NCBI GenBank assembly: GCA_043745355.1
Contig: JAYTSY010000009.1
Coordinates: 17,783-81,782 of the forward strand
DNA length: 64,000 bases
Direction of reading: 5' to 3'
From: a bacterium
Lineage (GTDB): Bacteria > Patescibacteriota > Minisyncoccia > Phycocordibacterales > CAIZLB01
Both the position numbers and the translations under genes were made by a program. The notes under the pieces are model-generated. The model was not told where the DNA came from, did no database searches, and worked only from the letters and a program-made list of their open reading frames with translations. Positions within the stretch are counted from its first letter, which is position 1; every line of letters starts with the position of its first letter. This document shows, piece after piece, positions 1,457 through 37,841 of this stretch.

Positions 1457-1810
1457 TTATTTCTCCTCTGCTTTTGGCTGGGGAGTTTTTGTTAGTAGCC
1501 CCTTTTTCCATCCGCCGAGTTGTCGGCCTATCTCCTCAAGCCTTGAGAGAAAATCTGAATATTTAGCAGTGGGTATGAGCTTGTTCTCCCATGCAAGTTG
1601 AGCAAAAAACTTTACGACATCAAATTTTGTTACTGCTCTGTTAAGTAGAGGAATTTTGTGTTCGAGGGGAAGATAGCTGAGACAAAACATCAATTCGATA
1701 CAATCTAAAAAAGCCTGTTCAATTTTGTTTCCAATTCCATACCGCTCAACTTTCGGAAAATCACGATACAGTGTGAGCCAGAAACGATATGTCTCCTTCG
1801 CTTTGAGGAT
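1457..1810 (-). CDS. avd: Avd-like accessory variability determinant (four-helix bundle); start codon unresolved
   Basis: The minus-strand frame is open from 1825 to the stop at 1457-1459. It translates as ..VILKAKETYRFWLTLYRDFPKVERYGIGNKIEQAFLDCIELMFCLSYLP...LEEIGRQLGGWKKG, matching the Avd / 23S-IVS four-helix-bundle pattern. There is no ATG/GTG/TTG upstream of 1693, so an ATC at 1808-1810 is one possible start. Confidence 0.7.
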   Translation of the reverse strand: MLKAKETYRFWLTLYRDFPKVERYGIGNKIEQAFLDCIELMFCLSYLPLEHKIPLLNRAVTKFDVVKFFAQLAWENKLIPTAKYSDFLSRLEEIGRQLGGWKKGLLTKTPQPKAEEK

Positions 1811-1844: not shown

Positions 1845-2876
1845 ATGATTCATATGAATTGTAGTTACCAAGATATCATATCTATTCAGAATCTGTGCGA
1901 AGCATGGTGTGAATTCGTGCGAGGTAAGAAATCAAAAAAGGATGTTGCGGAATTTTTTCTTAATTTATCACAAAATATTTTTATGCTTCACGAGGAACTG
2001 GCAAGCAAGACGTATATTCATGGTGCTTATGAAGCTTTTAATATCTCGGATCCAAAACCGAGAAATATTCACAAAGCGACAGTAAGAGACAGGTTGCTCC
2101 ACCATGCCATCTATAAAATTCTGTATCCGTATTTCGACAAGAAATTCATATATGATTCTTATTCATGCAGGAATATGAAAGGAACGCACAAGGCAGGAAA
2201 ACGTTTCTTAGATTTTGCCAGAAAGGAATCGCTAAACAATAAACGTACATGTTGGGTGCTTAAATGCGACATAAGGAAATTCTTTGCTTCGGTGGATCAG
2301 AGTATTCTCATCAAAATATTGAGACGATATATTTCTGACGAAAATACAATCTGGCTTATTGAGAAAATATTGGAAAGTTTTTCAAGCACAGGAGAGACGA
2401 TAGGATTGCCACTCGGCAATCTGACATCACAGCTATTGGTCAATATTTATATGAACGAGTTCGACCAGTGGGTGAAGCATGTTATGAAATTAAAATATTA
2501 TATACGCTATGCTGATGACTTCGTAATTCTAAGTCGTGACAAACATTACTTGCATGAATTGACCCCAAAAATCGCATATTTCTTGAACGAATATTCAGGA
2601 CTGTCGCTTCACCCTAAGAAGGTGTCTATTAATACATTTGCCTCCGGTGTCGACTTCCTCGGCTGGATTCATTTTCCTAACCATCGCGTCTTGCGCACTA
2701 CCACCAAACGCCGAATGTTCAACAATATAATAGAAAAACAGGGGAAGAAAGAAACCATCCAGTCATATCTCGGACTTCTACGTCACGGCAATAGTGGAAA
2801 ACTACAAAAAGAAGTTAAAAATATTTCAAATAATTTTGCACAGTCGCAAGTTAAAAACAGCGATAGTTTGATATAA
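1845..2876 (+). CDS. DGR-type reverse transcriptase
   Basis: RT motifs include IGLPLGNLTSQLLVNIYMNEFD (DGR-typical LGxxxSQ) and YIRYADDFVILS (YxDD). The ATG at 1845 follows a G-rich RBS (aagggggggtag). ORF-track codons 1725-1844 are antisense to avd and probably not translated. Confidence 0.9.
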   Translation: MIHMNCSYQDIISIQNLCEAWCEFVRGKKSKKDVAEFFLNLSQNIFMLHEELASKTYIHGAYEAFNISDPKPRNIHKATVRDRLLHHAIYKILYPYFDKKFIYDSYSCRNMKGTHKAGKRFLDFARKESLNNKRTCWVLKCDIRKFFASVDQSILIKILRRYISDENTIWLIEKILESFSSTGETIGLPLGNLTSQLLVNIYMNEFDQWVKHVMKLKYYIRYADDFVILSRDKHYLHELTPKIAYFLNEYSGLSLHPKKVSINTFASGVDFLGWIHFPNHRVLRTTTKRRMFNNIIEKQGKKETIQSYLGLLRHGNSGKLQKEVKNISNNFAQSQVKNSDSLI

Positions 2877-2921
2877 TAAACTCACAAATCGCACCTTTCA
2901 CAAAAGGTGCCTGACCCCAAC
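2869..2921 (+). promoter_or_regulatory. conserved promoter and palindrome leader, copy 1 (TGATATAAT, then GCACCTTT-CACA-AAAGGTGC, then CTGACCCCAA)
   Basis: About 50-nt element nearly identical to 5610-5662. The extended -10 overlaps the RT stop codon. The perfect 8-bp inverted repeat lies just downstream of the expected TSS. Confidence 0.5.
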
Positions 2922-3695
2922 ATGTCCCTCAACCTCCTCCAGCATCTCAATCATCTCGGTCTCTCGTCCAAAGAAATTGAAGTATATGAATTTCTCCTTG
3001 CGGTAGAAGCAGCATATCCAATGGAAATAGCCAAAGAAACGAGAATGAAGCGCTCAACGGTGTATGTCATTCTCGATTTGCTCAAGAAAAAAGGATTGGT
3101 CCGAGAAGTTCAGAGAGGAAAGCGTTTCGTGTACATATCAGAGGAGCCGGAACGCATTAGATTTCTTCTTGAAAAACTCAAACTTGAAACGGAGGATCAA
3201 ATAAAAAGCTTGGATCAAATCATCCCGCAGCTCAAGGCTACTGTTCGCAAAAAAGGCGAAGCACCCATCATAAAGTTTTTTGAAGGTGAAAAGGCCGTAC
3301 AAAATTCTATGGAAGAATTGGTAGCAAATCCAAAATTTCGATCCGAACTTGATTACGGGGTTTTTTCTCTCGAATTGATCTATAAATTATTTAAATCAAG
3401 AAATTTAAAAAAATATATCGATTTCAGGCTTACAACTAACAAACTTTTCAAAGTTATTTATACTGCTGAGGAGGGGGAAATTGCGGCGGGTATAGATGGA
3501 CAAGAAGCAATTAAAGTTGATCATGGAGAATATCCATTTTCATGTGACATCAGTGTATTCGAAGACGAGGTCCGTTTTCATATGTTGGGCAAGACAATTT
3601 ATGGCATTTTGATAAAAAACCCAGAGTTGGCAGGGACTTTAACTAGTTTGATTAAGTTGGCAGCGGGGAATGCTCAAATCCCACAGAGTAAATAA
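2922..3695 (+). CDS. TrmB-like winged-helix transcriptional regulator
   Basis: N-terminal LGLSSKEIEVYEFLL...STVYVILDLLKKKGLV HTH pattern, with a C-terminal domain shared with three paralogs in this window. The ATG at 2922 is preferred over the GTG at 2907, which lies inside the leader hairpin. Confidence 0.7.
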   Translation: MSLNLLQHLNHLGLSSKEIEVYEFLLAVEAAYPMEIAKETRMKRSTVYVILDLLKKKGLVREVQRGKRFVYISEEPERIRFLLEKLKLETEDQIKSLDQIIPQLKATVRKKGEAPIIKFFEGEKAVQNSMEELVANPKFRSELDYGVFSLELIYKLFKSRNLKKYIDFRLTTNKLFKVIYTAEEGEIAAGIDGQEAIKVDHGEYPFSCDISVFEDEVRFHMLGKTIYGILIKNPELAGTLTSLIKLAAGNAQIPQSK

Positions 3696-3873
3696 TTATT
3701 TAAAACGTCTAAGTCTTACTAAACATCTAATTACATTAGATATACTCATAAATAGATAATATCTAGTATATTTTAGAGCAGTATTTTAAATACATCTAAT
3801 ATAAATTGACACTTTTTAACATTAACATAGTATTAACACCAGAAAAGGTCATTGACAAAGGAGGGCATATCGC

Positions 3874-3939
3874 CAGAGCGTAGCTTGCTGTGTGGTTGGA
3901 CAAAGATCCAACTAAACACGCATAGCAAGCTACGCTCTG
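3874..3939 (+). other. 66-nt near-perfect hairpin in a G+C-richer leader upstream of the SPFH gene; candidate structured RNA or attenuator
   Basis: 16-bp perfect outer stem CAGAGCGTAGCTTGCT / AGCAAGCTACGCTCTG, then GTGT/ACAC and GTTGGA/TCCAAC inner stems. TTGACA-like boxes lie upstream at about 3816 and 3852. Confidence 0.35.
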
Positions 3940-4043
3940 TGAGCGCAAGTAAGTCAGTCTGTTGGCTTCCTGTTTAGGGAAGAGAGATACGAGAAGCATT
4001 TAGGCTAATCGGCTCTCTAATAGACGGCACTACGCGCTCCGTT

Positions 4044-5453
4044 ATGCGCTTTCAACAAAACAAGTATATGAAGACACTTATCGTGTTTCTGTGGATCGCG
4101 GCTTTAGCCGTATCGGTCACCCTCAATTCGTGGGTGCTCGTCAATCCTATCGTCGGACCTCACCTGGCTGCGCAAGCGGTAAATGGTGGTGACAATGAGT
4201 TCATCGCGAGTCATGCCTATCAGGGTGGTACTCGCGCCCTCGTGTCCCTCGAGTTCTGGGCGAGCCTTGCCATTTTTCTGATCCCCCTCGGGGTGACGAT
4301 GTGGTATCGGCGCGTGCAAATCAACAAAGTTATGCAGAGGGTTGGCGCGGCTATGCTCCTTCTCCTCATGCTTAACCTAGGTGGTTGCATGAAAGCCTAC
4401 AAGACGCCTCAATATGTCGAGGTCAAGCCCTCGCAAACGGCGTTTTTTATCCCGCTCGTTGGTGACAACAAAGCGGGGCAGGCAAAGTTTGACTCGAAGA
4501 CCTATGAAGCGTTCAAGAAGATTGGAGTAAAGAGACTTGAAGTTCCTCAGGAATGGCTGCCGACTGGACGAATGGAAAATAACGGCAAGTGGGTGCCCTC
4601 GGCCCGTGTGGTCATCGTCGATCGTTCCTCGGTCACGCGTGAATGGACAAAGAGCCTCCATAGTGGAAGCAAAAGCATTGACCAAGCGGTCAGTGTCGAG
4701 TCGCAAGACTCTGTTAACTTCTCGCTCGGCTTCAAGGTGACGGCCTACATCGCCGAAGAGGATACTTCAACGTTCCTCTACTACAATGCCTCTCGCGTCA
4801 AGGAAGATGCGTCTGGTCGTTGCGAAGTCGTCGGTCTCGACGAAGTGATGGACACTGAAGTCCTCTCGCGTCTCCAAAAAGTGGCTGCGCGTGAGTTCGG
4901 CCAATATCCGATGGACGTCGCACGGACCAAAAAGGCGGAGGTCTATGCCGTGATTGACACGGAAGTGATCCCGTTCTTCAAGGAACGTGGTATTACGATC
5001 ATGACGATCGCTCAGCTCGGCGGTTTGAGCTACGACAACATCAAGATCCAAGAAGCGATTGATAAGACAGTCATGGATCAGCAGGAGAAAGTCAGTGCTT
5101 TGGCTGCGTTCGACGCTCAACAAACGAAGAATAAAACCATCAAGCTGTCTGCCGAAGCCGAAGCTGCCGCAACGCTTACCAAAGCGGAAGGTGAAGCCAA
5201 AGGCAAACTCGCAGTGCAAAAAGCAATCGCTGAAGGTATCACTGCCGTCAACGAGGCGACCAAAGCTTCCGGTAGCAGCGAGGTGTTCTTCAAGCTCAAA
5301 GAGCTGGAGGTCCAAATGGAGTTCGCCAAGGCGAGCAAGGGAAATGTGCCGGCGATTCTCATCACCGGCGAGAACAAAGGCGGGTCAGGAACGAACTTCC
5401 CGCTCTCACTACCTCCTGATGTGTTGAAGAACAGTCAGACTCCCGCGAAGTGA
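4044..5453 (+). CDS. SPFH/band-7-like membrane or lipoprotein with a coiled-coil C-terminus
   Basis: C-terminal half resembles prohibitin/HflK-type SPFH plus an Ala/Glu/Lys coiled coil. There are N-terminal TM segments. An internal lipoprotein-type signal (MQRVGAAMLLLLMLNLGGC) begins at the ATG at 4332, so the start is uncertain (4044, 4068 or 4332). Confidence 0.6.
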   Translation: MRFQQNKYMKTLIVFLWIAALAVSVTLNSWVLVNPIVGPHLAAQAVNGGDNEFIASHAYQGGTRALVSLEFWASLAIFLIPLGVTMWYRRVQINKVMQRVGAAMLLLLMLNLGGCMKAYKTPQYVEVKPSQTAFFIPLVGDNKAGQAKFDSKTYEAFKKIGVKRLEVPQEWLPTGRMENNGKWVPSARVVIVDRSSVTREWTKSLHSGSKSIDQAVSVESQDSVNFSLGFKVTAYIAEEDTSTFLYYNASRVKEDASGRCEVVGLDEVMDTEVLSRLQKVAAREFGQYPMDVARTKKAEVYAVIDTEVIPFFKERGITIMTIAQLGGLSYDNIKIQEAIDKTVMDQQEKVSALAAFDAQQTKNKTIKLSAEAEAAATLTKAEGEAKGKLAVQKAIAEGITAVNEATKASGSSEVFFKLKELEVQMEFAKASKGNVPAILITGENKGGSGTNFPLSLPPDVLKNSQTPAK

Positions 5454-5525
5454 TTCGCACACAAGGTCTCATAAACCAAAGATGGTGGTAAACCACCCGG
5501 TCTGAAGGATGGCCGCAAACCTTCG

Positions 5526-5559
5526 CCCCGCATCTTGATCGATGCGGGGTTTCTTTTTT
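5526..5559 (+). terminator. rho-independent terminator
   Basis: CCCCGCATC / GATGCGGGG stem followed by TTTCTTTTTT. Confidence 0.8.
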
Positions 5560-5609
5560 ACAAATTATTTATTTTGTGTGTACAAAATCATGTGAAGCTG
5601 CATTTATTT

Positions 5610-5662
5610 TGCTATAATAAAAACACAAACCGCACCTTTAACAAAAGGTGTCTGACCCCAAT
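5610..5662 (+). promoter_or_regulatory. conserved promoter and palindrome leader, copy 2 (TGCTATAAT, then GCACCTTT-AACA-AAAGGTG, then TCTGACCCCAA)
   Basis: Near-identical to 2869-2921 and placed directly before the pilB ATG at 5663. Confidence 0.5.
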
Positions 5663-7438
5663 ATGTTTATCGATCCTGTACAAATGAAAAAACTGGTATC
5701 AGACTCGGGACTTGTTTCCCAAGCTGATATTGCTGTTGCTGAAAAGGCGCTCGCCAAGGCAGAAAAAGACGGCAAGAAATTAAATCTCGGCGAAGCTCTG
5801 ATGGCGGGAGGGAAGATGACCGAAGATGATTATCGTCGCATGCAGGCGTATCTCATGGGGATTCCGTTCGTCGATCTCAAAACCCAGAAGTTGGATTTTG
5901 AAGTGCTCTCACTTATTCCTGAGCCGATCGCTCGGAGCCATAACATCGTTGCCATAAAAAAGAAAGCAGACACATTGGAAGTTGCCATGCTCGACTCCGA
6001 TGACCTCTCCGCTATAGATTTCATCAAGAAAAAAACAGGACTCAAGATTTTGCCACGCATGACAAATACTGAGTCAATGAAAGCAGCATTGATTCAATAT
6101 CAAAAAAGTCTCAAAGCCGATTTCGGAGATATTATCCAGCAGGAAGCAGCGACACTCAAAATGGTGGCGCAGGACGGTGCTGTTCCTGGTGAAGAAGCAT
6201 CAGCAGACGATCTCAAAAAAATGGCGGAAGATTTGCCAGTGGTACGAATCGTTGACACACTTTTAAAGCACGCTGCACTTCAGGGCGCATCTGATATTCA
6301 TATTGAACAAACAGAATTTGAAGTGGTGGTGCGATATCGTATCGACGGAATCCTCCGTGACGCAATGATTTTGCCGAAGAGTGCTGGGTCAAGTATCACT
6401 GCTCGTATCAAGGTACTTTCCAATTTGAAACTTGATGAAAAACGACTGCCACAAGACGGACGATTCCGCATCGAACTCAATGGTGAAAAGATTTCATTCC
6501 GTGTTTCTATTTTGCCCACGTACTTTGGTGAAAAAACTGTTATGCGACTCCTTCGTGAAAATGTTTCAGGATTCAGTCTTGAGGGATTAGGTTTTCACGG
6601 ACCTGCACTTGAGATAGTACACGGAGGTACCAACATGTCAGAAGGTATGATGCTCACAACTGGTCCAACAGGTTCTGGAAAAACGACGACACTTTATACG
6701 GTGCTCGATATCATCAATCAGCCAGACGTAAATATTTCAACCGTTGAAGACCCGGTTGAATATCAAATGAAGCGCGTGAATCAAACGCAGGTGAAGCCTG
6801 AAATCGGATTCACATTTGCGTCAGGTCTCCGCTCGCTTCTTCGACAAGATCCGGATGTCATTATGGTCGGAGAAATTCGAGACAATGAAACGGCATCACT
6901 CGGTATCAATGCTGCGCTCACTGGTCACCTCGTACTTTCAACACTTCACACCAACTCCGCTGCAGGAGCAATTCCTCGTCTAATTGATATGAAGTGCGAG
7001 CCGTTTCTCCTCGTATCTACGCTGAAGATCATCATTGCGCAACGATTGGTGCGACGACTTTCTGACTCAAAAGAAAAGTATTTTCTCAGCAAAGATGAGC
7101 TGGCGCTTATTGAAAAGAAGATCGACATGAACCGTGTGCTCAAATCATTGCGAGACGAAAAGATTGTCGATCCTAAACTCGAATGGGAAAAGATTCCGTT
7201 TTATAAACCAAAGGCAAGTATTGAAACAGAAGACGGATATCACGGTCGCGTCGGTATCCATGAAGTATTGAAAATGAGTTCCGCAATCAAAGAGCTCGTC
7301 ATCAAAGGAGGAACGTCCGATGAGATTCAAGAGCAAGCGCGCAAAGAGGGGATGCTTACGATGATTGAGGATGGTATTTTCCAGGCGGTACAGGGATTGA
7401 CCAGTATCGAAGAAATTCTTCGAGTGGTTTCAGAATAG
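5663..7438 (+). CDS. pilB: type IV pilus assembly ATPase PilB (GspE family)
   Basis: Walker A GPTGSGKTTTLY, plus Asp/His boxes and an N-terminal GspE-N-like domain. ATG at 5663 preferred over the GTG at 5648. Confidence 0.92.
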   Translation: MFIDPVQMKKLVSDSGLVSQADIAVAEKALAKAEKDGKKLNLGEALMAGGKMTEDDYRRMQAYLMGIPFVDLKTQKLDFEVLSLIPEPIARSHNIVAIKKKADTLEVAMLDSDDLSAIDFIKKKTGLKILPRMTNTESMKAALIQYQKSLKADFGDIIQQEAATLKMVAQDGAVPGEEASADDLKKMAEDLPVVRIVDTLLKHAALQGASDIHIEQTEFEVVVRYRIDGILRDAMILPKSAGSSITARIKVLSNLKLDEKRLPQDGRFRIELNGEKISFRVSILPTYFGEKTVMRLLRENVSGFSLEGLGFHGPALEIVHGGTNMSEGMMLTTGPTGSGKTTTLYTVLDIINQPDVNISTVEDPVEYQMKRVNQTQVKPEIGFTFASGLRSLLRQDPDVIMVGEIRDNETASLGINAALTGHLVLSTLHTNSAAGAIPRLIDMKCEPFLLVSTLKIIIAQRLVRRLSDSKEKYFLSKDELALIEKKIDMNRVLKSLRDEKIVDPKLEWEKIPFYKPKASIETEDGYHGRVGIHEVLKMSSAIKELVIKGGTSDEIQEQARKEGMLTMIEDGIFQAVQGLTSIEEILRVVSE

Positions 7439-27540: not shown

Positions 27541-28338
27541 CTATTTACTCAATGCCACCGACTGCCACGAGAGATTGAATATCGTAGTCATCATATTATG
27601 AATATTTTCATCCTCAATGATGGTTCCAATTGCATTCGTCTTTGAGAGATTAACAATCGATACTTTGTTTTTCGCATAGATAACAATTTCGCCAGACATT
27701 GGAAACGTTTCCTTTGGTGCAAAGCGGAGATCTAGCCACACTTTTTTGGAGATATCCCCGTATCGTATCTCATTGAACTTTCTCCCCATTTCATTGTCGA
27801 TGGTGATTCCTCTTGTCGTCACGTTATATTTCTCTTTCTTCTTTACATATTCATCAAAGAAGTCTTTAGGGAGGTATTCCATGAGCTCTGATGCATCTGC
27901 CCAAGCAAGCATCTCGTATGATTTTTTCGTGGAGTAATGATCCTCATATATTTCCATGATACCCTCCACTCCTTCGTAATAGGTTATCTTAGGTTTCTCG
28001 CCAAGCATTCCATGGAGTTCTTTAATATCAGGGAGTATGGCTTTTGCGGTTTCAAATGAGTCTTCCGCCATCTTCACTTTATCCGATGCATACTTGATGA
28101 ATCTTTCTGGTTTCTCGATTTGATAGAAAAGCTTGTTTCGCTTCTCGATCTCATTCACAAGGTTCCTGACTGAGAGGTTGAGGAGGACCTTGTAGACTGT
28201 GCTCCGGTTTAGCTCTGTGTATTCGGCAAGGCGGGAAGGGAATGCTCCTCCTAGCTCCAAAAGGGCTAAATATACAAGAGCTTCCTTGTCGGAAAAGCCA
28301 GTAGCTTCCAGTTTTTTGAGAAAAGCAGGGTTTTTCAT
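27541..28338 (-). CDS. TrmB-like transcriptional regulator (paralog)
   Basis: GFSDKEALVYLALLELG...RSTVYKVLLNL HTH and a C-terminal YYEGVEG domain. Confidence 0.7.
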   Translation of the reverse strand: MKNPAFLKKLEATGFSDKEALVYLALLELGGAFPSRLAEYTELNRSTVYKVLLNLSVRNLVNEIEKRNKLFYQIEKPERFIKYASDKVKMAEDSFETAKAILPDIKELHGMLGEKPKITYYEGVEGIMEIYEDHYSTKKSYEMLAWADASELMEYLPKDFFDEYVKKKEKYNVTTRGITIDNEMGRKFNEIRYGDISKKVWLDLRFAPKETFPMSGEIVIYAKNKVSIVNLSKTNAIGTIIEDENIHNMMTTIFNLSWQSVALSK

Positions 28339-28486
28339 TGCTTAAGCATAAGATATTGCCTATTTTTGTCAATACTAACGAACAAAATAGTCTATATACT
28401 ATAGATATGGCTAATATTAAGACTAATATGTGGTGCATATGTTCACTGGAAAATACAGATATTGAAACATGTGTTATATTTTGCTC

Positions 28487-29611: not shown

Positions 29612-29650
29612 AATAAAAACACCGCCAGAGATGGCGGTGTTTTTATTTTC
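29612..29650. terminator. bidirectional terminator between convergent genes
   Basis: ACACCGCCA / TGGCGGTGT stem flanked by A and T runs. Confidence 0.75.
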
Positions 29651-30482
29651 TCTCAATAATATCCCGCATCGCTTTGTTGTGATCGATCTTTCGGCCGCCA
29701 GCTTTGACGAAACTAAACATGTCTTTGAGGAATCCAGTCATGTTGGAGTTTGTGATCTCAATTGCAACTTCTTCTTTCCAGTTGATGATAAGAGTCGTTG
29801 TTTTGAAGAGCCAGATCTCAGCATCATAATTGAATACATTATCAGGAAAAACATGGTAGTCAGCCATGCGGCCTTCGAGACTTTCAATTGCCCCCTCAAA
29901 CTTTTTTGGATCCCTTTTGATGTCTTCTGCGTATTTTCTGTAAGCACTTTCATTGATCAGTCCATCTAAAATGATCTGGTTTGACTTGATTGCTTCATTG
30001 AATTTTCCAATGAGTGTAGATGATGCCTTTTCAACAATTTCCATGAATGATCTATAGTGCTGGATAGCACGAATGCGCTCATTTTTGTTTTCGGATGCGA
30101 TACGAGCATATGCAGGCACGATCTCTCTCGCCCCGATGTGAATGATGAATTCGTCTTCCCTTGAGACTTTTATCTTTACTCCCTTTTTATCCTTATTTGC
30201 GATCTCGATCTCCCCGAGAGCTTCTTTGAGCTTTTGAGTGAGACGCTCAAGGCTGATTGCTATGTATGATCGCCGTTTACCAATGGATTGATGCTCAACA
30301 AGCCCTTTAGCTATGAGGCCCCGAATAGCATGGTTTATGCCAGTTCTAGAGAGGGAAGTAGCCCTTACAATACCCTGAACATTCCTTGGTTCCTCGAGGC
30401 TATTTAGAATAGCAATCTCCGCCGCAGAGAGATTGAGCATTTTGAGTGAATTATTGTTCCAATCCATGCCAAAAGTATACAT
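29643..30482 (-). CDS. winged-helix (TrmB/MarR-like) regulator (paralog)
   Basis: LSAAEIAILNSL...LSRTGINHAIRGLIAKGLV HTH. Confidence 0.6.
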   Translation of the reverse strand: MYTFGMDWNNNSLKMLNLSAAEIAILNSLEEPRNVQGIVRATSLSRTGINHAIRGLIAKGLVEHQSIGKRRSYIAISLERLTQKLKEALGEIEIANKDKKGVKIKVSREDEFIIHIGAREIVPAYARIASENKNERIRAIQHYRSFMEIVEKASSTLIGKFNEAIKSNQIILDGLINESAYRKYAEDIKRDPKKFEGAIESLEGRMADYHVFPDNVFNYDAEIWLFKTTTLIINWKEEVAIEITNSNMTGFLKDMFSFVKAGGRKIDHNKAMRDIIERK

Positions 30483-30632
30483 ATGACTATAAAATAGTCA
30501 AATAAGAATAACGAATATGCGCTTATAAATATAGCTTTATTTGGGTTTATTGTTCAAAATATAGTATTGACACGACTATATATACGTTGCTTGATATGAT
30601 ATTGAGGTCTTATAAACGTAAATATTAATTAT

Positions 30633-36946: not shown

Positions 36947-37711
36947 TTATTTCTCTGTAAACTGCCACAAACACATAAACAACGCATCAAGCATTGCGGT
37001 GATAGTCGGTGAATCAACAATGATCGAGTACAGCTCGCCTTCTTTGTGAGAAAAAAGTGCCACTTTCTTTCCGTAGATAATGATCGTTCCATCGAAAGTG
37101 AAACCTTTCGGAAGTAATCGTGTATCACGATGGCTGTCAGGAAGATATTCTTTTGGAATATCACTTTCTTCTCGCCATGGAATAATCATTTTTGTCTTTA
37201 CATCAATTTTCTTTTTGTAGTCCAGAACCTTGCCGATATATTTCGGGAGATATTCGATGAGTCGTGGGTTGGAGATGGTATGGAACTCCTGGATATCTTT
37301 GAGGTGAGGATTATCGTATACGTCATCAAAAACAAGTTTTACCCCTTCTCGCCCAGTATATGTTCGAACATCTGATTCCTTGTCCCCAGAGTTCTTGAGC
37401 GCCATAAGCCTTGGAATGAGGTCGTTGAGTGATGAAACCTTCTCCTCCAGGTCATTTTTGAGTCGGGCAGGGTTTTCAGCAAGGAAATGGAGGACATTGT
37501 TCTTCTTGTACGAGGAGACAAGGTGCTTCTCTTTGAGGGTGTCTAGTATGAGATATACGGTGGCACGGGGGATCTTGGTATTCGCAAATATTGCAAAAGC
37601 CGTATTAAATGACTCCCCGAGAGCCCCAAGAGGCTTCTTTAGCAGGTATATATAGACCTTAGCCTCACCCTCATTCAGGCCATATTGTTGGAGAGATTGT
37701 ATGTTTTCCAT
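36947..37711 (-). CDS. TrmB-like transcriptional regulator (paralog)
   Basis: GLNEGEAKVYIYLL...RATVYLILDTLKEKHLV. Confidence 0.7.
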   Translation of the reverse strand: MENIQSLQQYGLNEGEAKVYIYLLKKPLGALGESFNTAFAIFANTKIPRATVYLILDTLKEKHLVSSYKKNNVLHFLAENPARLKNDLEEKVSSLNDLIPRLMALKNSGDKESDVRTYTGREGVKLVFDDVYDNPHLKDIQEFHTISNPRLIEYLPKYIGKVLDYKKKIDVKTKMIIPWREESDIPKEYLPDSHRDTRLLPKGFTFDGTIIIYGKKVALFSHKEGELYSIIVDSPTITAMLDALFMCLWQFTEK

Positions 37712-37841
37712 AATATTGTCATGTTTTATGACAGCAATAGTATAGCAAAAATAGCTATATACACAAGGATATTTGACATATATATATAAATACTGTCTTG
37801 TTTATATATACCAAACTGTCAAAAAGCCCTAGTATGTGGGT

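Follow-up and report, generated by a model that had tools for sequence, protein, structure and literature searches.

The TGM of Thermococcales (TATCAC-N5-GTGATA) is bound by TrmB/TrmBL1/Tgr downstream of the promoter, and lacO1 is the classical roadblock operator. At the RNA level, the ompA 5' UTR and the aprE/ermC leaders of B. subtilis are 5'-proximal stabiliser or regulatory hairpins, where classical stabilisers have 5' tails of less than 7 nt. The locus described here lies in a 64-kb stretch of DNA (the window), and its host is an uncultivated ultrasmall bacterium of the CPR/Patescibacteria type. As with the TGM and lacO1, an inverted repeat of ~17-18 bp is found just past a core promoter and before a TrmB-like gene, with half-sites one helical turn apart. 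It differs from the TGM in its bacterial promoter of the sigma-70-type extended -10 class, its unrelated sequence, and its status as a predicted site, while the element that orthologues of this regulator conserve is another dyad, located at another promoter. Similar to ompA and aprE/ermC, a short stable stem-loop is located near the 5' end with a single-stranded stretch before the AUG. In contrast to these leaders, the predicted 5' tail is longer (7 nt), and most messages of this Shine-Dalgarno-independent organism are leaderless. ROSE and fourU thermometers and Shine-Dalgarno-sequestering hairpins also include a leader hairpin with an AAGG/GGTG string, whereas here a Shine-Dalgarno sequence was found in 4 of 64 genes, the string (AAGGTG in the stem) is 12-14 nt from the AUG, and neither the AUG nor the linker is paired. 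REP/BIME or IS200/IS605-type repeats (Y1 transposases) are likewise short perfect palindromes in more than one copy, but here the two copies share orientation, promoter-to-ATG context, and homologous flanks, and no Y1 transposase is encoded in the window.

The repeat is part of a 61-nt block present at 2864-2924 (copy 1) and 5605-5665 (copy 2) of the plus strand. The two copies align without gaps at 53 of 61 positions (49 of 56 over the span first pointed out, 2869-2924 against 5610-5665), which bears out the claim of an earlier note that a TrmB-like regulator gene and pilB share a near-identical leader. Outside the block, similarity is at chance level (p=0.27 for 128 nt upstream and p=0.20 for 120 nt downstream). 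Copy 1 precedes the gene of a TrmB-like winged-helix regulator of 257 aa (2922-3695, plus strand; Pfam PF01978, E=2e-11, with support from the orthologue alignment), and its first 13 nt overlap the final codons and the stop codon (2874-2876) of a DGR reverse transcriptase gene. Copy 2 is in an ordinary intergenic region, 3' of an intrinsic terminator (5525-5550, plus strand) that divides the partner gene downstream of the regulator from the pilB promoter. The pilB gene (5663-7438, plus strand) encodes a T2SSE ATPase with an MshEN domain and is the first of a pilB-pilC-pilin operon. A second perfect dyad, ATTTTGT-GTGT-ACAAAAT (5571-5588, plus strand), was found upstream of the pilB -35 and has no equivalent at copy 1.

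Both copies are laid out in the same order: an extended -10 box (TGnTATAAT), a perfect dyad or hairpin (G)CACCTTT-N4-AAAGGTG, a C-rich linker of 11-12 nt, and the ATG. The extended -10 boxes reported earlier were recovered as TGATATAAT (2869-2877) and TGCTATAAT (5610-5618), both on the plus strand with a weak -35, and they predict transcription starts at about A2884 and A5625. The dyad is positioned much as had been described, just downstream of the predicted start and immediately before the TrmB-like gene and pilB; it has a symmetry of 7-4-7 or 8-4-8 and extends from +8 to +27 relative to the start predicted from the extended -10 box. Its perfect inverted repeat also stood, while the spacer given as four or five nucleotides is N4 in both copies, as a pattern search with N5 returned no match. 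Copy 1 reads GCACCTTT-CACA-AAAGGTGC (2891-2910, plus strand; 8 bp with a loop of 4), and copy 2 reads GCACCTTT-AACA-AAAGGTGT (5632-5651, plus strand), with seven Watson-Crick pairs and a closing G-T (G-U in RNA). The linkers from hairpin to ATG, CTGACCCCAAC (2911-2921) and CTGACCCCAAT (5652-5662), are on the plus strand and predicted to be single-stranded, and the C-rich, G-poor CTGACCCCAAC is atypical against the A/T-rich start regions of the genome. Alignments with 16 regulator orthologues and with pilB orthologues support ATG 2922 and ATG 5663 as the start codons, rather than GTG 2907 and GTG 5648, which are in frame. An N-terminal extension from these GTGs, which are within the 3' arm, was rejected as the orthologues begin at the ATG.

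Within the window, which covers less than 10% of the genome and to which the copy counts refer, exact CACCTTT-N4-AAAGGTG occurs at two sites only (2892-2909 and 5633-5650), and AAAGGTGnCTGACCCCAA has two exact matches where 0.05 were expected at up to three mismatches. With as many as 11 substitutions allowed, neither the window nor any fetched locus had a third copy of the 38-nt leader, and no further block was present in an additional ~1.2 kb upstream and ~0.75 kb downstream of the window. Logan contigs that include the locus were 100% identical to the window, and hence provided no population signal. The block was absent from all seven orthologous regulator loci (L004, L005, L014, L016, L017, L019, and L020) and all five orthologous pilB loci (L009-L013), and a search of the 200 nt that precede the regulator in seven orthologous loci found no CACCTTT/AAAGGTG half-sites. 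Most of the regulator and pilB genes in these loci are leaderless or have short leaders, with either an extended -10 box 6-10 nt from the ATG, as in many genes of the window, or an unrelated short leader. These simpler promoters at both genes suggest that the cassette took their place.

The possibility of a dispersed motif was rejected: among 185,579 species genomes, the only matches of CACCTTTNNNNAAAGGTGNCTGACC were a pair of terminator palindromes in a single Binatia MAG (GGGGTCAGGCACCTTT...AAAGGTGCCTGACCCC), which were judged to be chance or unrelated. A longer pattern had no matches in JGI metagenomes, viral contigs gave none, and blastn against phages and plasmids found no match. A mobile hairpin (REP, MITE-like, or IS200) was also rejected, with two copies in one context and none in public collections. 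Similarly, an intrinsic terminator, including one of the reverse transcriptase gene, was rejected due to the lack of a U tract, the stem being followed by CTGACCCCAA; terminator scoring at the block returned a weak score on the minus strand of copy 2 only, where no gene converges. With two promoter-linked copies only in 64 kb and no U tract, the motif is not the generic terminator or dispersed repeat that the earlier note had considered. As a separate observation, Y1-transposase-associated palindromes adjoin pilB in one of the relatives (L013).

The best reading of the sequence comparisons would be that the two operons carry a common promoter-leader cassette through one duplication event, private to the lineage. 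In the proposed mechanism, a lineage-specific cassette of promoter and 5' leader was duplicated once and would give the TrmB-like gene and the pilB-pilC-pilin operon the same control region. A sigma-70-type extended -10 promoter would start transcription ~7 nt downstream of the box, and the resulting 38-nt leader would include an 18-20 bp dyad (an 8-bp hairpin) followed by the single-stranded linker to the AUG. A dimeric winged-helix factor, for example another TrmB-like paralogue of the genome, would occupy the dyad just past the start site as a roadblock, and both units would be switched together. The arrival of the cassette at the regulator may coincide with the DGR insertion upstream. The comparisons show directly the duplication, its limits, its absence from relatives, and the other conserved element beside the regulator. 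We infer where transcription starts, whether a protein binds, and in which direction regulation would go, and we hold the reading of a once-duplicated cassette with a DNA operator for a factor other than the adjacent regulator tentatively, at somewhat below an even chance.

At least four TrmB-like paralogues are encoded in the window, and two of them have perfect dyads in the same position, TGCTATACT-N5-TGTCAT-N5-ATGACA-N5-ATG (37717-37733) and TGACTAT-AAA-ATAGTCA (30484-30500). The order of extended -10, dyad, and ATG is thus a recurring predicted operator layout here. A regulon test, which calls for independent sites with differing flanks, found two sites with homologous flanks and no degenerate copy in 64 kb. 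The copies diverge by 13%, where none of the seven inter-copy differences falls within the 14 positions of the stem core (p~0.06, our own calculation) and ~23% of the other free positions have changed, a pattern that is only suggestive as support for the dyad. The dyad flanks, CACAAAyCG and CTGACCCCAA, are conserved between the copies to the same extent as the dyad, and since both copies descend from one event, conservation of the dyad cannot count as independent support for binding by a protein. This limitation, the shared flank conservation, the change from G-C to G-T at the stem base, and the G+C-rich stem ends are at least equally compatible with an RNA element.

An RNA-level element, in which the 5' hairpin and its C/A-rich single-stranded flanks act on the transcript, is possible, albeit doubtful. 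Its role may be in mRNA stabilisation, as the site of an RNA-binding protein, or in the translation rate of a leadered message that has no Shine-Dalgarno sequence. The hairpin dominates both leader ensembles (54-55%), with -10.6 kcal/mol in the 41-nt leader of copy 1 (z=-4.0) and -9.0 kcal/mol in copy 2 (z=-3.4), and the conserved block is composed of the promoter and the entire transcribed leader, ending at the AUG. G+C dominates the base of the stem, in contrast to the operator-like dyads in the rest of the window, which are rich in A/T. The change of the closing pair from G-C to G-U agrees with an RNA element, but it is the one stem change between only two copies and no compensatory pair was observed. 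Additionally, neither copy matched a family in Rfam 15 at gathering thresholds or at E<=5, the pilB leaders of relatives have no structure in common, and the single-stranded 5' tail, predicted at 7 nt, is longer than usual in classical 5' stabilisers. The hairpin also leaves the AUG untouched and has no Shine-Dalgarno sequence to hide. The earlier suggestion that it sequesters the ribosome-binding site is not upheld: both copies have MFE and centroid structures that leave the AUG and the preceding 11-12 nt unpaired, and Shine-Dalgarno sequences are hardly used, with a core sequence at 4 of 64 window genes against a background of 11.5%. Given this frequency, their absence at both leaders is genome-wide and not leader-specific.

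It is unlikely that the resemblance reflects a neutral promoter copy, where one gene acquired the other's working promoter-leader, perhaps because the regulator had lost its original promoter to the DGR insertion. In that case, the hairpin would have no specific regulatory role, and the likeness would come from recent descent only. The block is lineage-specific and conserved in no relative, its divergence is spread over non-essential positions, and the reverse transcriptase stop codon inside the -10 box suggests a junction. However, the block runs from the promoter to both start codons exactly, as a functionally delimited unit, its stem is unchanged against the rate at other free positions, and a perfect 8-bp leader stem is unlikely without selection (z~-4).

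There is a slim chance that the cassette is a lineage-specific RNA-acting leader that makes two otherwise leaderless genes leadered and thereby gives one post-transcriptional signal to the pilus machinery and a stress-linked regulator; in such a leader, the hairpin and C-rich tract would be read by an RNA-binding factor or the ribosome itself.

The model of the earlier note, in which the product of the adjacent TrmB-like gene (2922-3695) would bind the dyad, act as a repressor of its own expression, and control the pilus operon as well, is improbable. The dyad is just past the predicted start site and before the regulator gene, its half-site centres are 11 bp apart in a compatible geometry, and dyads also occur at the promoters of two TrmB-like paralogues in the window. 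The orthologues of the regulator (59-69% identity) argue otherwise, as they retain residues 43-48, KRSTVY, nearly invariant in 17 sequences (the window and 16 orthologues), while their promoters include no such dyad. KRSTVY is no more than the presumed recognition helix, however, and a similar stretch in a paralogue of 25% identity makes this argument weak by itself. No regulator orthologue was linked to pilB in 11 gene maps, and no TrmB gene was found within 4 kb upstream of pilB in the relatives. The genes next downstream of the regulator orthologues are always SPFH-like or Ter stress genes. In the window, this partner is a 469-aa membrane protein (4044-5453, plus strand) with 54% identity to the gene at the same position in L019. 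Of its positional counterparts, only those in L005 and L006 gave Band_7/SPFH Pfam matches that were faint or weak. The clear Band_7 protein of L014 has no detectable similarity to the 469-aa protein.

A different conserved element is found in the gap between regulator and partner (3696-4043, plus strand), which is the candidate operator region of the regulator. On the plus strand, the gap includes GTCTAA at 3707, a perfect dyad ATCTAAT-TAC-ATTAGAT (3725-3741), a dyad TCTAG-N6-TTAGA (3762-3777), ATCTAA-N5-ATTGACAC from 3794, and a promoter TTGACA(3806)-16-TAGTAT(3833). GTCTAA/TTAGAC is the only hexamer shared by all eight such gaps (the window and seven loci), with 13 matches, where shuffles gave an expectation of 1.6 and never more than 7 in 2000 rounds. 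GTCTAA-N5-ATTGACAC recurs among loci with fixed spacing, and the two TCTAR-N5-7-YTAGA dyads of the 64-kb window are both inside the gap. All 8 loci conserve GTCTAA dyads next to the regulator, unlike CACCTTT, and the leader dyad was absent from the gap upstream of the conserved neighbour gene in all eight. The two elements have nothing in common; a candidate resemblance, GTCTGA in copy 2 only (one mismatch and no inverted partner), was unconvincing. Conserved beside the regulator and retained in the window, the GTCTAA element is the better candidate operator. From these patterns of sequence conservation, the adjacent regulator most likely acts on GTCTAA-type sites before its SPFH-like partner gene, and it is probably not the protein that reads the leader dyad.

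Type IV pili are central to the attachment of Patescibacteria to host cells and to their exploitation (PMC11623550, PMC10633639). Literature searches found no work on the control of pilus expression in Patescibacteria and none joining TrmB with CPR or Patescibacteria. A shared control region, as in the preferred reading of a single duplicated cassette, would reveal one input into pilus expression that is specific to the lineage and tied to a regulator gene, and the predicted pilus-regulator link is confined to one species-level lineage. An RNA-acting leader, if true, would represent a translation-control element of a new type, in genomes where leaderless messages dominate. Of more general significance is the group of TrmB-like orthologues with a conserved SPFH-like or Ter membrane-stress partner and a GTCTAA-type candidate site, from which a regulon can be predicted, and the prediction tested, in several CPR genomes.

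A block of 61 nt was found to be shared by 2864-2924, before the TrmB-like regulator gene (2922-3695), and 5605-5665, before pilB (5663-7438), with 53 identical positions and no gaps in the local alignment. The block runs from 5 nt 5' of the TG in the extended -10 box to the ATG, and beyond these limits the likeness was at chance level, both over 128 nt upstream (p=0.27) and over 120 nt downstream (p=0.20). Two near-identical promoter-plus-dyad segments are present as the earlier note had described them. The exact dyad CACCTTT-N4-AAAGGTG, with a spacer of 4 nt in both copies, occurred only these two times in 64 kb, and AAAGGTGnCTGACCCCAA, from the 3' part of the block, had two exact matches where 0.05 were expected. 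A fuzzy search of the window and all fetched loci, with up to 11 substitutions allowed in the 38-nt leader, found no third copy. Unusual for the genome are the 44 nt that separate the -10 box from the ATG, the stable hairpin, and the C-rich linker between hairpin and ATG, CTGACCCCAAy (CTGACCCCAA). The pilB copy sits in an ordinary intergenic region downstream of a terminator (5525-5550). A further perfect dyad, ATTTTGT-GTGT-ACAAAAT (5571-5588), lies just 5' of the pilB -35 region, has no equivalent at the regulator copy, and may be an extra control site specific to pilB.

The gene order that the note had given was borne out by Pfam, which recognized the reverse transcriptase of a DGR (1725-2876), the TrmB-like regulator, and pilB followed by pilC and pilins; an unannotated protein of 469 aa (4044-5453) lies between regulator and pilB. 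Alignment with orthologues begins at the first residue in both cases, so 2922 and 5663 mark the true ATG starts. The DGR (245-2876) also includes a target gene (245-1024) with the variable repeat inside it (864-978), a hairpin (1046-1080), a template repeat (1337-1451), and a bAvd-like gene (1457-1693, minus strand). The two repeats differ at 22 positions, every one of them a template adenine, and the DGR is genuine and complete.

Among 5.8 billion proteins, the nearest regulators were 59-69% identical, and the homologues came from metagenome bins of CPR/Paceibacterota type. The comparison covered the DNA of seven independent orthologous loci (L004, L005, L014, L016, L017, L019, and L020) and gene maps for more. 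Neither the dyad nor either half-site was found in the 200 nt preceding the regulator in any of the seven, and most orthologous regulator loci had a -10 box 6-8 nt from the ATG. Similarly, the leader was missing at all five pilB orthologues (68-74% identity, L009-L013), where TGATATACT or TGCTATACT boxes are followed by a very short or unrelated leader. At L013, an IS200-like Y1 transposase gene is divergent from pilB (2147-2900), and the two AAAAAGGTTTAACCTTTTT palindromes in between are probably transposon-end or REP-like hairpins. The only matches in a scan of genome collections were two terminator palindromes in the Binatia MAG DASPNH01 (GGGGTCAGGCACCTTT-loop-AAAGGTGCCTGACCCC; L007 6567-6604 and L008 1540-1577). 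Their 3' half equals the leader's AAAGGTGCCTGACCCC, most likely a coincidence, given that the pattern used in the search selects for that half. Metagenomes, viral contigs, phages, and plasmids gave no match, and three sequencing runs yielded contigs of the same organism that were 100% identical to the window. The cassette is hence private to this lineage and stems from a single duplication, which is real, sharply bounded, and lineage-specific. That the two copies share the dyad is no independent sign of a regulon.

Downstream of the regulator, every orthologous locus has a gap of 220-370 nt and then a membrane-stress-type gene. This partner is in some loci an orthologue of the 469-aa protein (54% identical in L019) and in others a Band_7 protein or a TerC/TerD/TelA/vWA-TerF cluster; the counterparts in L005 and the further locus L006 show faint Band_7 matches. 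An unbiased hexamer census was made of eight gaps (window 3696-4043; L004 10769-11121; L005 10787-11097; L014 10769-11075; L016 5622-5843; L017 10778-11007; L019 6763-7099; L020 4874-5239). GTCTAA/TTAGAC was the sole hexamer found in all eight, with 13 matches against 1.6 expected from composition-matched shuffles (maximum 7 in 2000), and the second-ranked hexamer was the overlapping ATTAGA. A TCTAR-N5-7-YTAGA dyad occurred in five of the gaps; the only two in the 64 kb of the window, at 3726 and 3762, both lie in the gap, and 3725-3741 is a perfect ATCTAAT-TAC-ATTAGAT. The half-site stands in most loci at a constant 5 nt from the -35 element (GTCTAA-N5-ATTGACAC; ATCTAA-N5-ATTGACAC in the window), where the conserved partner gene, SPFH-like or Ter, has its promoter. 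Residues 43-48 of the regulator, KRSTVY, are near-invariant in 17 orthologues, a point that is weak alone because a paralogue at 25% identity has a similar stretch. Together, the gap element, the conserved partner, and KRSTVY make GTCTAA-type sites the best candidate operator for the adjacent regulator and speak against its binding to CACCTTT-N4-AAAGGTG. The leader of the partner gene is about 200 nt long (3834-4043) and contains a long hairpin (about 3877-3938), and hairpins at the equivalent place in L004 and L014 show apparent compensatory changes. No Rfam family matched this leader, which may represent a structured leader RNA or else a small ORF, as in L005.

The genome is essentially Shine-Dalgarno-independent. 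GGAG, GAGG, or AGGA occurred at -20 to -4 in four of 64 genes, below the 11.5% background, and in no ribosomal protein gene was a core Shine-Dalgarno sequence found; start regions are 72% A+T and 12% G. In many genes, an extended -10 box stands 6-13 nt 5' of the start codon, so that their mRNAs would be leaderless or nearly so. Given this rarity, the lack of an obvious Shine-Dalgarno sequence is the rule here and no special trait of the two leaders. The hairpin dominates both folded 41-nt leaders (-10.6 and -9.0 kcal/mol; z=-4.0 and -3.4), and the AUG and linker are single-stranded in each. The suggestion that the hairpin hides the ribosome-binding site or start codon is contradicted by these unpaired segments and by the genome-wide scarcity of Shine-Dalgarno sequences.

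The readings of the dyad were weighed on two homologous copies. It is tentatively regarded as a DNA operator for a factor other than the adjacent regulator. The window encodes at least four TrmB-like paralogues, and TrmB-like proteins seem to be the chief regulator family of this stretch; three on the minus strand (27541-28338, 29643-30482, and 36947-37711) have perfect promoter dyads (28391-28405, 30484-30500, and 37717-37733, respectively), and each is divergent from a cupin, binding-protein, or transporter-type gene. The dyad lies between the -10 box and the ATG at 30484-30500 and at 37717-37733, the latter being TGTCAT-N5-ATGACA, 5 nt past TGCTATACT; this layout is thus a recurring operator design here. 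An RNA hairpin element is possible but somewhat less probable: the one difference in the stem region turns the closing G-C pair into G-T, which keeps RNA pairing, the stem base is G+C-rich in contrast to the A/T-rich operator-like dyads, and the conserved unit is the promoter with the whole transcribed leader. A neutral promoter copy is unlikely; in its favor, the seven differences within a 56-nt span miss the 14 core stem positions only at p of about 0.06, and the stem is no better conserved than its flanks. Least probable, and not supported, is autoregulation and pilB control by the neighboring TrmB-like protein, as the earlier note proposed, with the dyad at none of the seven orthologous loci, pilB after the regulator in no orthologous locus, no TrmB gene in the 4 kb that precede pilB in relatives, and the GTCTAA-type sites and partner linkage pointing elsewhere.

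The -10 box of the regulator copy contains the stop codon (2874-2876) of the reverse transcriptase gene. The genes upstream of the regulator are different in every relative, and no DGR linkage of its orthologues was found in other genomes. It is plausible that insertion of the DGR cut the regulator off from its own promoter, which a copy of the pilB promoter-leader would then have replaced; the direction of copying is part of this proposal. Promoter-proximal dyads and 5' hairpins are elements of a kind already known. The duplicated promoter-leader very likely places both units under common signals, and the GTCTAA element provides an uncharacterized family of CPR regulators with a candidate operator and regulon.
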